Source: an uncultured Cytophagia bacterium
GTDB taxonomy: Bacteria > Zhuqueibacterota > Zhuqueibacteria > Oceanimicrobiales > Oceanimicrobiaceae
Assembly (NCBI GenBank): GCA_964539665.1
Contig: CAZIKB010000003.1
Location: 60,062-124,061 of the forward strand
Length of the DNA stretch: 64,000 nucleotides
Direction: 5' to 3'
Part shown: in pieces, positions 36,001 through 60,000 of the stretch
How positions within the stretch are numbered: position 1 is the first letter of the stretch
How the letters are laid out: the number at the start of each line of letters is the position of its first letter
Program-made: the position numbers

Positions 36001-39000
36001 ATCTGCTTCAAATTACATCACAAGCAGTGTCATAGTTACGTTCGCGTTATCCATACTGGCCATTATTTTACTACATATTACTGTTCGGTCTATCAAGTAT
36101 GATGATATAATTTTGCAACCAGTTTACATCCTGGCCTGGTCTCTGATTGCTTCTGGAATTGCAGATTCTTTAGAAGGAATACTGCAAGGTTTGGAGAAAA
36201 TTCAAGCCATCGCGAGCGCCTGGATGATTGAGCAGATACTACGTGTGGCCGTAAGTCTCTTTATTATCTACAATGGATATGGCATAATTGAATTGGCGCT
36301 GGTTTATGCTGTGATACGCTATGTTTACCCTGTGCTTCTTTATTGGATGTTAATGAGGACGACAAAAAAAATAAGGTGGCAGCCGGACTTAAATTTAGTA
36401 AAAAAATTATTTTCAGCAACAAGAGTTTTTGGCCCAATAATGATTTTTGTTTCTGTATACTGGCGAATAGATTCTATTATATTAGCTAAGGTTTTAGATC
36501 TTAAGGATGTAGGCATTTATAATGCCGGCAATAAACTTTTTTGGTTTTTTATTATTCTGGTACGAAGTTTCTTTGCATCTTTTTATCCACTTGTTTCTGA
36601 TATATTTGCTAATCGAGCTTCACGGTTTGAAATTGTATGCAAGAAATCTATATTCTATTTATTGGCCTTACTGGTACCGATTGCTGTATCTATTACACTG
36701 TTTTCCGAACAAATTATAACAACATTGTGGGGCCAACAATACATTGGAGCGGGCACTGTTTTACAAATATTAATTTGGTGTACATTGCCATACGCTGTGT
36801 CCAAAGTGTTCGCGTATGCCTTTATCTCGAGCAATTTGCAGCGTTTTGATCTTTGGGTAAACATTATAGGGGTGGCTTTTAAAGTTACAATATTTACAAT
36901 AATGATAAATTTATATGGAGTTGTAGGTGGAGCCTGGGCAAATTTGATTGGCATGTTTTTTGTAGTGGTGATACAGTTGCCATTTGTTATGAATTATTTA
37001 TTTAAGTTTGAACTCAGTTCTATGTTAATGCCTTGTGTAAAACTTTTAATTGCTGTTTTTTCGATGTTTGTAATAGGAAAATTGTTCCCACATGTTAATT
37101 TCATTTTGATGGGAGTCGTAATAAATGTTATTTATTTTGCAACTTTATTTCTAATAAAAGTATTCAATGATGAAGATAAGTTACTTTTTCGTAAGTTATT
37201 ACATCTTAGCAGGACATAGTAAATAAATATTGCAGGCAGGGAACGTAAATGTCTTTTAAAAAACCAAATATAATTTTAATTATGATAGATTGCGGGCGGG
37301 CTGATCATTTTTCTATTTATAATGATAGTAAAAATACGACTCCAAATTTAAAAAAAATAGCTGCGGAAAGCATGGTTTACAATAATGCTATCTCACCTGC
37401 CGGTTGGACCTTGCCAACCCATTCATCAATATTTACTGGTGTTTATCCCTCGCAACACGGCGCCCACAATGAAAATCATCAACTCTCAAATGAATACCCA
37501 ACGCTTGCAGAATTGCTTGTTGAACAAGGGTACAAGACTTTTGGAATCTGTACTATAGATTGGCTAAGTCAGGCTACCGGAGTAATTAGAGGATTCCAGG
37601 AATTTGATAACTTACATTTTAGTAAGTCAAAATTAATATTGAAAAGAATGTTACAATACCCCATAATTGGCGGGAAGGACTGCTGGGGATATGAAACCAA
37701 CAGAAAAGCGAAAAAATGGCTAAAACAAAATGATTCAGGCAATCCATTTTTTATGTATCTCCATTATAATGAATTGCATCTGCCTTACAACATACCTGAA
37801 AAAATATTGAAGAATTTTTTACCGGAAGATGTGACGGTTGCTAAGGCATTAAAAATTAATCAAGATGCCAAAAAATATTATGCCGGTATTGCAAAAATGA
37901 GTGCAGAGGATTTTAAAATACATAAAGCATTGTATGACGCCGGATTGAAATACACTGACGATTTAATAGGGCAATTGATTGATTTCTTAAGAAAGCAAGA
38001 TATTCTTGATAACACAATTCTTGTCATCACAAGTGACCACGGTGAAAGCTTAGGCGAACACGGACATTTTGACCATTATTACGTCCTTTATGAATCCCTG
38101 CTCCATGTGCCTTTAATGGTTAGATATTTCCCTGTTTTTGGCTCGGGAAAGTCAGATGCGCTTGTGCAAACTATTGATCTATATCCAACTTTATTACAAT
38201 TAGCCGGTGTACCAATTGAAAAATATGAACATCACGCTGCGTTAACCCTTCCCCCGGTTGGAAAAAATAAAGGGCGAGAATATGCGTATGCTGAACGCTT
38301 TCAGGATTTAAAAGGTTTAAAGGAAAGCTTCAAAAATCATGATTTATCACATTTGGAAAAATATGAGCAGGAACGTCTGACTGTTATTAGAGGCGAGCGA
38401 TATAAGCTTATTTATTCTATGCAAGGTCGTCATGAATTGTTCGATTTACACAATGATCCCCGCGAAGAAGAAAATATATTATTAAAAGAACCGGGAATAG
38501 CAGAAATCATGATGGATAAACTAAAAGAGTGGCAATCATCATTTCCATTAAAACAAACAGAAGGAGAAGAAGCATATTTTGATAAAGAGGCTGTTGAACG
38601 TCTAAAAGCATTGGGATATCTTGGTTAATTAATTATTACTTATCGACTAATCGATCCATGTATTAAAATTTAGCGAAGGTTAAAATGTTTAATTACAATT
38701 CTGATAAAGTTAAATTACCTTATACATTTGCTAAAATGTGCAAAATTAAGGTACAATATTGTTTGGCGATAATGCCATTGTTTATTTTGTTTAATACGTC
38801 TTTTGCTCAAAGCCCGAAGCACAACTATCCTTTAATTGGATGGCAGACTTTTGGTGGAGCGGTCGATGATTTCTATGCTCGATTTGATCTTTTAGTAACA
38901 AAATCTTCAAGTAATGGTTTTGTAAAAAGATTAAAAGGCATAAATCCTGATATGTTAATCGTCTCGACTACAGACTGGAATACCGGGCGAGACATTGATA

Positions 39001-57000: not shown

Positions 57001-60000
57001 GTCCGCGGCCGCGAACCTGAAGGCGCGGTTGCACCTGAAGAGTATGAAACCATTCGGAATGAATTGATTCATAAGCTGGAAAATATAAAGGACGAAAAAG
57101 GCCAGCCATTAACTACCAGAGTTATAAAGCCAAATGAGGTTTATAAGGAAGTAAACAATATTCCTCCGGATTTAATGGTCTATTTTGGTGATTTGAATTG
57201 GCGGTCGGTTGGCAGTGTCGGATTAAATCGAATACACACTTTTGATAAAGAGCTGGGACCTGATGATGCTAACCATTCTCAGCACGGTATTTTTGTCATG
57301 CATGATCCACAAAATCCTGCAAATGGCAAGAGAATTCACGGCATGCAATTGGTTGATGTTGCGCCAACTATTTTAGATTTATTTGGTGACGAAATTCCAA
57401 ATGATATGATCGGTAAAGTTATCAGGAACAAATAAGGCGTTAGAGGAAACACGCTGAGGATATTTGCCACACACTTCCAGGGTGTGTGGCAAATCCAATT
57501 TTAAATTAAAATCAATTAATTAGTTGTAATGATATAAATTTTATGGAGGTTTCAATTTTATGAAGACATCTAAAAAAGCATGTACAATTTGGTTCACGGG
57601 TTTACCTTCCTCTGGAAAATCTACTTTGGCGGAGATGCTGGAAAAGGAGTTAAAAAACCGCGGAGAAAGGGTCGAAATTTTAGATGGCGATGTAGTCCGT
57701 ACGAATTTAAGCAAAGGCTTGACCTTTAGTAAGGAAGATCGGGACATCAATATCCGGAGAATAGGATTTGTTTGTCATTTGTTGACAAGAAATGGTGTGT
57801 TCGCAATTTCTGCAGCAATATCTCCTTATAGAAATATACGAGATGAAAACCGTGCACTCATAGGCAACTTTGTCGAGGTTTTTGTTGATTGTCCACTGGA
57901 TGAATGTATTAAAAGAGATGTAAAAGGTCTTTATAAAAAAGCATTGGCCGGCGAAATAAAGGAATTTACCGGCGTTTCTGATCCTTATGAAGAACCTCTC
58001 AAACCTGAAATTGTGATTGACGCCCACGGAGAAGAACCCAAAGATAGCCTTCAAAAAATACTGGCGAGATTAGTAGAATTAGGTTACTTATCCAATAACG
58101 GTCTTGATACATCTGACAAAGCATATTCTGATGAAGAAGAAGAGGTAGTGAGAAAGCGGCTGAGTGATCTGGGCTATATTTAATGTTAAATATTTTTAAG
58201 AAAAATAAGGGATCAAAAGTATTTGTTCTGTCTATCGACGGTGTTCCCTTTTCATTTATGCAGGAAAACATAGAAAAGGGTCATTTTCCTAACTTCAAAC
58301 GTTTTTTGAATATGGGTGATTTTAAAAGGATGAATTCAGTGCAACCGGTGATATCATCGGTTGCCTGGTCCTCTTTTATGACAGGCAAGAATCCGGCTAA
58401 GCATAATATTTATGGATTTGTGGATCAAATGCCGGGTTCAAATAATGTATATATTCCTACTTCGCTCAACATGACCAGTAAAACCATTTGGGATATCATG
58501 AGTGAGGCTGGGAAAAAAGTGTTTGTGATGAATGTTCCTGTAACCTATCCACCACGCGCGGTAAATGGAATTATGATTGGCTGTTTCCTTTGCACTCAAA
58601 TTGAGAAAATAGCTTCCCCGCCTGCTATTTCTGCTGAATTAAAAAATATGGGCTATAAGATTGATGCAGACGCCTGGATCGCCCGTGAAAATTTAGACAA
58701 ATTCCTGGAGGAAGTAAATACTACCCTGGAAAAGCGAACCGAGGCTATGTTTCATTTTTTGGCAAAGGAAGATTGGGATTATTTTCACACCCACATCATG
58801 GAAACAGACCGGATAAATCACTTTTTATGGGAGCACATGGAACTCGATGAGCCGAAATATGCTAAAGCTTTTTTCCAATTTTATAAAAGGTTGGATGATA
58901 TTTTAGGTGAAGTTGAACAAAAAATCGGCGAAGACGCGGAATTTATAGTTCTGTCTGATCACGGTTTTTGTACTATTAAGAAAGAAATCTATCTCAATAA
59001 TTATTTGGAAGAAGCCGGTATATTGAAATTTAATAACTCTCAGCCGGAAAGTATCGCGGACATGCATGAAGATTCCACGGCCTACAGCTTGATTCCAGGC
59101 AGGGTATTTGTGAATCTAAATGGGCGCGAGCCGAACGGTTCGATATCGCCGGGGAATTATGAAAAGACCCGGGAAAAACTCACTGAGACGCTTCTTAATT
59201 TAAAGGAAAAAGACACCGGCGAATTTATTATCAAGGAAGTTATCAGGCGCGAAAATATCTACGAAGGTCAAAATATTGGCTCCGCAGCGGACTTAATTGC
59301 TGTTCCACATGATGGTTATGACTTGAAAGGGAACGTGAATAAAGAAGTGTTTGGTGAAAAGGGGGCGCTGGTCGGAATGCATACATTCGAAGATTCACTT
59401 TTATTTGTTCGAAATAAATCTTTGTTAAAACAGAATAATCAATTTTGGATCGGAGATTTGGCTCCAACTATTTTAAATATGATGAATATACCCATCCCAA
59501 ACGATATGGATGGAGTGGCATTAGTTTGAGTAATCTTTGCAGGAAAAAATGACCCAGAAATCACAAATCAATGTTCTTCAGGTTGTAGAGGGACTCAATT
59601 TAGGCGGGGCTGAAATTAAGCTTTTGGAGCTCATCGCCAACATGGATCGCAGCAGATTTAGAACGGTTGTGTGTAGTCTTGGAATGGGTGAAAGAATTAA
59701 AGAAAAAGTAACAGAATTAGATGTTAAATTTGTTAGTCTCGCGAGGAAAAGACGATTTGATCCAATGTTGATATGGAAAGTGGCCAAATTGATTCGTCAG
59801 GAAAATATTGATGTCGTGATGACTACGCTTTTTTATGCTGATGTTGTTGGCGCTTTTGCCCGGCTCTTCAGCCCGACTAAAGCTGTATTCTCCTGGGAAA
59901 CCATATCTGCTCCGGAATGGCTGCTAAAACACAGGCTTTTTGCTTATCGCTTTGCCATGCGATATTGCGATAATATCATTTCAGTTTCACAAGCAACGGC

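Follow-up and report, generated by a model that had tools for sequence, protein, structure and literature searches.

A shared C-terminal tail on sulfation-linked proteins of many bacterial phyla and a candidate link to NPP-like proteins

A stretch of 64,000 nucleotides from an uncultured Cytophagia bacterium (contig CAZIKB010000003.1, positions 60,062 to 124,061; the whole stretch is called the window) was analysed for a short C-terminal peptide, the tail, which had been noticed from the sequence alone at the ends of otherwise unrelated proteins. Endings of the form L-x-x-L-G-Y-[LIV]-x(0,1)-stop were sought by a six-frame pattern scan of the complete 64-kb window and in its list of open reading frames (ORFs); exactly six were found, all on the + strand, as are the AP_A to AP_D and MEM276 genes described below. 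The first belongs to a soluble sulfatase-fold protein of 459 residues without signal peptide (37249..38628; PF00884, E=3.5e-54), with its tail at 38578..38628 (..EAVERLKALGYLG / ..DKEAVERLKALGYLG, then the stop). A sulfatase-fold protein of 625 residues with about five N-terminal transmembrane (TM) helices (43768..45645; PF00884 at residues 199-490) carries the tail at 45595..45645 (..EAEKRLRALGYVK), and a second TM sulfatase-fold gene, split by a frameshift of one nucleotide (45855..47692), carries it at 47642..47692. The fourth carrier is a DUF2061 protein of 99 residues, a hairpin of two TM helices (48291..48590; PF09834, E=1.8e-18, residues 12-61), in which the tail (48540..48590, ..LLEERLKELGYL) and a linker are the only soluble part. 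The fifth is a ribbon-helix-helix (RHH) protein of 63 residues, RHH-1 (52796..52987; tail 52937..52987, ..EEVKKRLQGLGYLS / ..SEEEVKKRLQGLGYLS). The sixth is an adenosine 5'-phosphosulfate (APS) kinase of 207 residues (57560..58183), of which NCBIfam model NF002059 covers residues 5-177; the canonical domain ends in ..LVELGYLS (58070..58093), and the tail (58133..58183) lies within the extension of 30 residues beyond it.

None of the remaining 42 gene-like ORFs of the window has this ending. Internal copies of the motif are limited to two, the LVELGYLS of the APS kinase and one in an unrelated epimerase at 4009. The sequence-only reading had spoken of six to seven carriers; six are borne out by the scan and the ORF list, and the seventh, which is not, was probably the internal LVELGYLS. 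Its fold assignments are supported by Pfam for the three sulfatase-fold proteins (PF00884), DUF2061 and APS_kinase; the 63-residue family gave weak matches to RHH_1, FitA-like and PSK_trans_fac models. The frame correction that it made in the third gene also holds. The frame is lost at a run of five G (47494..47498), and the ORF 45855..47513 stops at 47511-47513; read in the other frame from this run, the DNA encodes GELYNLEIDPGERN..., which is the C-terminal block typical of sulfatases, with the tail (..ETIEKLKSLGYIK) after it. The orthologous gene in a related locus (L046; L and P labels denote fetched loci and proteins) is unbroken and encodes 624 residues ending in ..KKLKSLGYIR. The frameshift is either an assembly error or the mark of a recent pseudogene.

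Six such endings are far more than chance or composition would give. The expectation per window was 0.002 from composition and 0.0024 after shuffling of the C-terminal 60 residues, and the probability of at least 5 among 48 ORFs is about 2e-16. Related loci were then scanned in 2.2 Mb of fetched DNA, covering 7-10 kb on either side of each anchor gene. Here 211 ORFs end in the tail and about 1,100 other gene-like ORFs lack it, which, with the six observed against about 0.002 expected, rules out a chance or compositional origin. A control with reversed sequences gave 0 matches, and the 80 genome loci hold only 8 internal copies, 6 of which are the natural end of the APS kinase domain. The possibility that a repeated DNA element or a mobile 3' cassette had been copied into the six genes was likewise rejected: the Leu, Gly and Tyr codons of the six tail-coding stretches differ and the 3' flanks after the stops are unrelated. 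Since the coding DNA is dissimilar, selection has acted on the peptide and not on a repeated stretch of DNA. A similar background frequency, or a lack of conservation, would have spoken against the proposal of a shared tail; instead, the ending is absent from the other genes of the fetched DNA and is kept in orthologous loci of many phyla. The tail is thus a real, selected and portable C-terminal module.

The 211 tails are tightly constrained around one tyrosine, which is the second residue from the end in 70, the third in 138 and the fourth in 3, and which is never replaced by Phe, Trp or His. In all 183 unique tails (183/183) it is preceded by Gly. With Tyr as position 0, the profile runs from an aromatic or aliphatic residue followed by S/T (around -17 to -13) and E/D (-14 to -10) through I/V (-9), K/R (-8 to -6), L (-5), K/R/Q (-4), L (-2) and G (-1) to I/L/M/V at +1, after which one family-specific residue is optional (S in RHH-1; Q, K or R in the sulfatase-fold proteins). 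The I/L/M/V is the very last residue in 70/211 tails, and 138 have one more, often polar. We read this pattern as a single amphipathic helix, capped at its start by an S/T-x-x-E box and at its end by Gly, with charges that follow the helix dipole and hydrophobic residues aligned at -9/-5/-2; a Tyr and a hydrophobic residue would then lead up to the free carboxylate.

The tail helix is preceded by a tether of about 8-35 disordered residues. In the AlphaFold2 (AF2) model of the APS kinase of the window, the core has a predicted local distance difference test score (pLDDT) above 90 and the canonical last helix spans residues 160-173, whereas the linker (183-187) falls below 50 and a tail helix of 13 residues (191-203) reaches 72-76. 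The alignment of solved sulfatases to the soluble sulfatase-fold protein ends at about residue 443, some 15 residues before its end. The tail is therefore an add-on to the sulfatase and kinase folds, because alignments and models end ahead of it and the AF2 tether is disordered; that it might be a normal part of either fold is ruled out by the sulfatase alignments, the end of NF002059 at residue 177 and the same tether. Its origin may lie in the kinase itself. Solved APS kinases (cyanobacteria, Thiobacillus, Aquifex, Arabidopsis) end in ..KYIE, ..GFI or ..GYL, that is, ..[GK][YF][LI] plus 0-2 residues, and the tail looks like a duplicated and detached second copy of this C-terminus. A variant of a second RHH family (P0130, 107 residues) has two tandem tails (..RKRLRGLGYLPDEDH...KIKKRLKDLGYI), resembling the double copy in the tailed APS kinases.

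The tail extends well beyond the window and beyond the six listed carriers. No Pfam or NCBIfam model spans it, RHH-1 or the membrane protein MEM276 described below. A search of 1.84 billion representative proteins with a tail profile returned just 23 matches at E<=1e-3 and is too insensitive to serve as a census; the C-terminal matches are fragments of the RHH, APS kinase and sulfatase families, and the multi-copy matches fall on helix 1 of UBA or PG_binding_1 repeats. Membership of those domains, which are three-helix bundles of 35-60 residues, was rejected, as just helix 1 and the LGY turn are matched and the tail ends 1-2 residues after Tyr. On viral contigs the degenerate pattern EEE-x-KK-R-L-x-x-L-G-Y gave 0 matches where about 0 were expected, and is hence uninformative.

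More than 995 relatives of RHH-1 are present in the protein collection; 119 of the 120 best end in L-x-G-L-G-Y-[ILM]-S, and L56, G58, L59, G60 and Y61 do not vary. Genes for relatives occur in at least 532 species genomes, among them those of KSB1, Calditrichaceae, Acidobacteriota, Gemmatimonadota, Entotheonella, Eisenbacteria, Methylomirabilota and Brocadiaceae. The mean column identity across phyla, about 63%, is unusually high for a small regulator. A search of solved structures with the RHH-1 profile gave no significant match; the ending ..QLAALGY of yeast uL13 was judged a coincidence. Counts of carriers and of neighbouring genes were taken from 80 loci fetched around RHH-1 relatives. In these loci the tail is found on 13/18 APS kinases, 21/23 sulfatase-fold proteins and 3/3 DUF2061 proteins; on a second RHH family (RHH-2; VTIKIPRPLY...GFSSPTDFIVFVLRDL) encoded upstream of ATP sulfurylase (Sat); and on two ASST-like beta-propeller proteins and one Phosphodiest-like protein. 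It is also present on 90/120 closest relatives of the APS kinase of the window, and is kept by the DUF2061 orthologs of L046, L060, L076 and L162, whose genes adjoin those of the NPP-like proteins of the alkaline-phosphatase superfamily (AP proteins) introduced below. Metagenome loci anchored on AP genes added PAPS_reduct (..MQKLRALGYM) and Sulfotransfer_1/3 proteins, Phosphodiest paralogs of about 550 residues and a fusion of AP_C with APS kinase. Altogether, at least nine unrelated families carry the tail, and all are related to sulfation or to 3'-phosphoadenosine 5'-phosphosulfate (PAPS). The six carriers named in the sequence-only reading thus stand, and its list was incomplete, as RHH-2, PAPS-reductase-like proteins, sulfotransferases, ASST-like proteins and NPP-like paralogs are tailed too. 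The lineages involved are KSB1, Calditrichota, Acidobacteriota, Gemmatimonadota, Zixibacteria, Brocadiaceae, Chloroflexota, Entotheonella and one cultured Desulfotomaculum.

The carriers are found in two compartments, in line with what had been proposed from predicted topology. Signal peptides are missing from the APS kinase, from the RHH proteins and from the soluble sulfatase-fold protein, while tailed sulfatase-fold and ASST-like proteins of Acidobacteriota and Gemmatimonadota bear clear lipoprotein signal peptides. From its basic N-terminus and two TM helices, the DUF2061 protein should expose its tail on the cytoplasmic side. Hydropathy and K/R counts suggest that the TM sulfatase-fold proteins and their orthologs have the N-terminus inside, about five TM helices and the catalytic domain outside. 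In the soluble sulfatase-fold protein, alignment to solved sulfatases places T-L-P-T-H where the formylglycine motif C/S-x-P-x-R is expected, and all three 'sulfatases' of the window have T-x-P-x-H (or T-x-P-S-x) in its stead. Their nucleophile is probably Thr, as in LtaS, EptA and NPP, instead of formylglycine, and they are more likely transferases or phosphodiesterases than sulfatases. Between the tailed sulfatase-fold genes lie a gene for a GHL15 plus Golvesin_C protein (38685..40538) and one for a GH39-like protein (41923..43731), and around them are genes for a Wzx-type flippase, glycosyltransferases, a carbamoyltransferase and a FemAB-like acyltransferase; the window as a whole reads as a modified-exopolysaccharide locus.

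Four paralogs of one Phosphodiest-type (PF01663) family, AP_A to AP_D, are encoded next to the tailed genes of the window, and none of the four is tailed. AP_A (48612..50795) begins (48612..48890) with a signal-like hydrophobic segment, the motif A-x-A-Y-[IV]-G-P-G-A-G-F-A, which is invariant from KSB1 to Acidobacteriota, a TM helix and a strongly basic stretch, followed by the catalytic domain; this domain should be cytoplasmic, which makes AP_A a candidate cytoplasmic hub. AP_B (50788..52782; E=9e-41) is taken to be exported, and thus a candidate periplasmic hub, because its orthologs bear lipobox or twin-arginine signal peptides. AP_C and AP_D are soluble: AP_C forms the Phosphodiest part of a protein of 878 residues (54799..57435; PUA_2, ATP-sulfurylase, Phosphodiest), and AP_D (58183..59529) has 448 residues (E=1.5e-43). 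The nearest solved folds to the AP_C domain, found with Foldseek, are ENPP1 and ENPP6 at about 13% identity. MEM276 (53039..53869) is an uncharacterised membrane protein that matches no Pfam or NCBIfam model.

In the 80 RHH-1 loci these genes form a cassette: AP_A is present in 79/80, usually followed by AP_B, then RHH-1 and, nearly always directly after it, MEM276 (74/80). The cassette is often preceded by RHH-2, Sat, AP_C, APS kinase, AP_D and sulfatase-fold genes, and the order AP_A-(AP_B)-RHH-1-MEM276 is kept across many phyla, in no fewer than 532 species genomes. A box resembling a sigma-70 promoter, TTGxCx-17 nt-TATACTACA, recurs some 100 nt ahead of AP_A in distant lineages and even in GC-rich genomes (L006, L014, L019, L026, L035, L038, L062, L066, L067 and L078). 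A clear RHH operator was not found upstream of AP_A, where just this TTGxCx-17-TATACT box stood out.

The coupling was also measured in reverse, with the soluble AP proteins as query against metagenomes, which gave a further 80 loci. Of those of at least 9 kb, 29/41 hold one or more tail-bearing ORFs. Of the tailed ORFs, 46/62 have an AP gene at a distance of 300 bp or less (median gap 48 bp), as compared to 144/496 of the remaining ORFs (Fisher p = 9e-12, without correction for shared ancestry). Where an AP locus has no tail, PAPS-related genes are missing from its surroundings as well. The association persists in minimal modules, such as AP plus a tailed APS kinase alone (L090), tailed RHH-2-Sat-tailed APS kinase-AP (L091), a tailed AP_C with AP_D in Brocadiaceae (L173), the triad of AP_A, tailed RHH-1 and MEM276, and, in the cultured Desulfotomaculum copahuensis (L174), a tailed RHH-2 directly upstream of an AP_C-APS kinase fusion, WP_066668933.1. 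A co-conserved PDZ, TPR, protease or chaperone partner, for which a search had been suggested, did not turn up near the tails in the 80 + 80 loci. The genes that are co-conserved beside the tails are in fact the NPP-like ones, which the sequence-only reading had taken for ordinary members of the pathway. Single-linkage clustering of the neighbours gave no partner other than AP, RHH, MEM276, Sat, APS kinase and sulfatase genes, in an analysis blurred by spurious ORFs in high-GC loci.

The APS kinases provide two natural experiments. In the window and in L007, a tailed APS kinase goes together with the Sat-AP_C fusion and AP_D. Seven loci that are near relatives of the window (L005, L006, L009 and L085-L088) share the operon order of the window (methyltransferase-Sat-APS kinase-family 4 glycosyltransferase (GT4)...), with a stand-alone Sat and neither AP_C nor AP_D; in 7/7 the APS kinase is tail-less. 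Conversely, 15/18 tailed APS kinases have AP_C or AP_D adjacent. AP_C itself is 55-77% identical across phyla, and its 120 best relatives (P0264-P0383) include 35 Sat-AP_C and 5 AP_C-APS kinase fusions, which indicate that the AP domain belongs with the PAPS-making enzymes. Of the covalent AP_C-APS kinase fusions 4/5 have no tail, the outcome expected if the tail serves to tether the kinase to AP_C. As a separate observation, in the tail-less L085-L088 the APS kinase gene is followed by GT4-GT2-DUF2304-FemAB-like-polysaccharide deacetylase-PMT_2 and then by a giant adhesin-like protein of about 2,400 residues.

The tail was compared with known terminal peptides that join unrelated proteins to one partner. 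The closest in kind is that of the cysteine synthase complex, where the C-terminal tail of CysE binds the active site of CysK and is copied by the CdiA-CT toxin and EGL-9 (PMC5562914). As in that system, unrelated proteins carry a short flexible C-terminal peptide around one sulfur-metabolism enzyme, and for CysK the end residues by the carboxylate are critical and clients compete (PMC5562914). The peptides differ, however, with ..GDGI or ..GYGI-COOH there and helix-LGY-hydrophobic-x0-1 here. The invariable final Ile of the CysE type is not found, given that I/L/M/V is last in only 70/211 tails. The CysE partner is a pyridoxal phosphate (PLP) enzyme, whereas the receptor proposed here has an NPP-like alkaline-phosphatase fold; some putative clients here are exported, and the docking itself is a proposal. 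A CysK or other PLP-dependent O-acetylserine sulfhydrylase gene was seen neither in the window region nor among the Pfam labels of the loci.

In HbYX/GQYL tails (PAN, Rpt, Mpa, Bpa) a Tyr one residue from the C-terminus of a flexible tail enters a pocket of the partner, and the motif is common to unrelated activators. Here, in contrast, Gly always precedes Tyr, which is penultimate in only a third of the tails (70/211) and third from the end in two thirds; ATPases and proteasome activators are not among the carriers, nor do proteasome genes occur among the conserved neighbours seen in the loci. RHH-1 and RHH-2 resemble RHH antitoxins (RelB, ParD, FitA) in having an N-terminal RHH, a linker and a short C-terminal helix, and by analogy partner binding could tune operator binding; they differ in that their neighbours are PF01663 proteins and MEM276 and no known toxin family, and in that pathway enzymes share the peptide. 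Judged by sequence features and partners, the tail appears to belong to none of the CysE/CysK, HbYX/GQYL and RHH-antitoxin systems.

Other comparisons are more distant. The cargo peptides of encapsulins and bacterial microcompartments and the acidic tail of single-stranded DNA-binding protein (SSB) recruit several unrelated proteins to one structure by a short terminal peptide on a flexible linker; here no shell or SSB-type hub is encoded, some carriers are membrane-bound or exported, and the sequences are unrelated. The idea of a physical association between makers and users of PAPS is shared with other systems: Sat-APS kinase and Sat-APS kinase-pyrophosphatase fusions exist, and human PAPSS2 is reported to bind SULT2A1 (PMC6016456). 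These cases are domain fusions or surface contacts and involve neither a shared C-terminal peptide nor an NPP-like protein. C-terminal sorting signals (PEP-CTERM, LPXTG, GlyGly-CTERM, PGF-CTERM, type IX secretion C-terminal domain) were rejected. They combine a motif with a hydrophobic TM segment and a basic cluster (or consist of a beta domain of about 80 residues) and occur on exported proteins only, whereas the tail is a charged helix of 13 residues without TM segment that is also present on cytoplasmic APS kinase and RHH proteins. As to PDZ ligands, no PDZ gene occurs among the conserved neighbours in the loci, and many tails finish on S, Q, K or E. Searches of open-access papers turned up neither the motif nor the cassette.

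We favour the reading, with a probability of roughly 0.45, that the tail is a portable docking peptide which ties PAPS-pathway enzymes and regulators to NPP-like hub enzymes. The likeliest receptor would be the Phosphodiest-type protein encoded beside nearly every tail gene. The cytoplasmic paralogs AP_A, AP_C and AP_D would serve cytoplasmic clients, and the exported AP_B exported ones. APS kinase, which makes PAPS, and the PAPS-reductase-like enzymes and sulfotransferases, which use it, would be tethered to the hubs; sulfatase-fold and ASST-like transferases and the DUF2061 membrane hairpin would be further clients. The two RHH regulators, bearing the same peptide, might be active or inactive depending on whether the hub is free or occupied, and thereby feed back on transcription. 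Judged by their family, the hub enzymes could remove pyrophosphate or 3'-phosphoadenosine 5'-phosphate, or act on APS or PAPS. The sequences and models establish the motif with its conservation, its fixed C-terminal place, its tethered helix, its spread over families and its genomic link to the NPP-like genes; that the tail binds at all, which protein receives it and how regulation would follow we infer. Such a hub accounts for one tail on nine folds, for its restriction to sulfation and PAPS, for the two compartments, for the adjacency statistics and for both natural experiments provided by the kinases. Of the original idea of a recognition tail, the portable module has proved real; the notion of one assembly is strained by carriers that reside in two compartments.

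Several observations weigh against docking to NPP-like hubs. The strict requirement for Tyr, never Phe, exceeds what hydrophobic docking needs. The association counts ignore shared ancestry, the seven tail-less loci are mutually close relatives, and the fetched DNA represents local context only. The fifth AP_C-APS kinase fusion (P0264) retains the tail, with a further AP_D encoded beside it. In the AF2 model of P0264 both domains are confident, the linker of 22 residues is disordered and the tail helix has a pLDDT of 87, compared with 72-76 in the kinase alone; this rise is weak evidence, as sequences and alignments differ between the models. Exported tail proteins occur without AP_B within 10 kb in 2 loci (L014, L066), and the numbers of exported tail proteins in the 80 RHH-1 loci are too small to decide whether they are paired with AP_B. 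Some sulfotransferases beside AP genes have no tail (L089, L175). Finally, 9 AP_C relatives and several proteins of about 550 residues show that NPP-like paralogs can themselves be tailed, which makes a simple division into clients and receptors too tidy.

As Phe never takes the place of Tyr, a chemical role stays in consideration, and a modification site is the main rival, if an unlikely one. In this case the tail would be a substrate tag: with APS or PAPS as donor, the neighbouring NPP-like enzymes would covalently modify its Tyr (O-sulfation, phosphorylation or nucleotidylation), so as to regulate the carriers or to make a protein-borne aryl sulfate. It would explain why Phe never occurs in 211 tails, whereas canonical APS kinase ends allow it (EGFI), and why one fused AP_C-APS kinase keeps its tail where a tether is redundant. 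All contexts are PAPS-related; the carriers include ASST-like and arylsulfatase-fold proteins, whose families have aryl sulfates as substrates; and NPP and other alkaline-phosphatase-superfamily enzymes work through covalent Ser/Thr intermediates. However, the surroundings of Tyr (L-G-Y-hydrophobic, basic at -4 to -8) are unlike known acidic-flanked sulfation sites, the acidic run being 10-14 residues away; a resemblance to sites of the TPST/RaxST type was rejected on these grounds, positions -1 to -8 being G, L, x, K/R/Q, L, R/K, K/E and K/R, with the acidic run at -10 to -14. In addition, the loss of the tail in 4/5 covalent fusions suits tethering better than tagging, and a stoichiometric protein-borne donor would be catalytically poor. 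A more elaborate form, which we consider distinctly improbable, is that of a carrier arm: Tyr sulfated, or otherwise charged, from APS or PAPS by the NPP-like enzymes would offer a protein-borne aryl sulfate to ASST-like and arylsulfatase-fold enzymes, including those in the PAPS-free exterior, and the two RHH repressors would sense from this modification how much activated sulfate is available. If true, this would be a new post-translational sulfuryl relay and a new activity of the alkaline-phosphatase superfamily.

The resemblance of the tail to natural APS kinase C-termini, from bacteria to plants (..GYL, ..GYI or ..KYIE at the extreme end), raises the quite doubtful possibility that tails bind one another, or occupy the site of the canonical C-terminal helix of APS kinase (..L-x-x-x-G-Y-L), so that the carriers co-assemble without NPP-like receptors. 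The two tandem copies in tailed APS kinases and in one RHH-2 (P0130), as well as the tails on NPP-like paralogs, would fit. A helix of 13 residues is short for a stable homotypic bundle, though, and modules with a single tail exist (AP_A-RHH-1-MEM276 triads, L090, L173), often with no second tail or APS kinase nearby; the gain and loss of the kinase tail alongside AP_C and AP_D would be left unexplained.

Very little speaks for a degradation or quality-control tag, read by a protease, adaptor or chaperone encoded elsewhere, by which the pathway would be stabilised or turned over jointly. The tail is strictly C-terminal with Tyr-hydrophobic by the free carboxylate, as in several end-recognition systems, and it is present in two compartments, both of which possess tail-specific proteases. 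Yet the 80 + 80 loci yielded no protease, PDZ, TPR or AAA+ gene conserved along with the tail, such a tag would not account for the close link to NPP-like genes, and the last residue is family-specific and can be polar (S, Q, K, E). It is hardly credible that the tails lack a common partner, and that helix caps useful in themselves, or amphipathic helices with a weak affinity for membranes, spread because they evolve easily: the profile does match helix 1 of UBA and PG_binding_1, which makes a 'helix-LGY/F-turn' a generic element, and an acidic start, a basic end and capping boxes give an intrinsically stable helix, but only sulfation-related families have the tail, which about 1,100 other gene-like ORFs lack, its register to the C-terminus is constant across nine folds, its AF2 tether is disordered and it is not packed on the domain, and the helix is acidic to neutral and also found on integral membrane proteins, unlike membrane-targeting helices of the MinD/FtsA type.

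Overall, docking of the tail to NPP-like hubs is the reading we prefer, and its interest lies in the pathway concerned. Terminal peptides shared around a hub are known (CysE/CysK, HbYX, SSB tails, encapsulin cargo), and none has been described for sulfate activation or sulfation. From sequence alone, the tail marks out nine or more protein families as one network, spread over many phyla that are mostly uncultured, and can serve as a simple annotation marker for sulfation-linked proteins. It singles out, as the likely centre of this network, a highly conserved, uncharacterised NPP-like family, members of which are joined to ATP sulfurylase or APS kinase in dozens of lineages; a function of the AP_C family in PAPS metabolism appears undescribed. 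Two small RHH repressors are linked to the same peptide. The role of AP-family genes beside Sat and CysC, the hand-over of PAPS to its users and the regulation of sulfated-polymer loci thereby become approachable questions.

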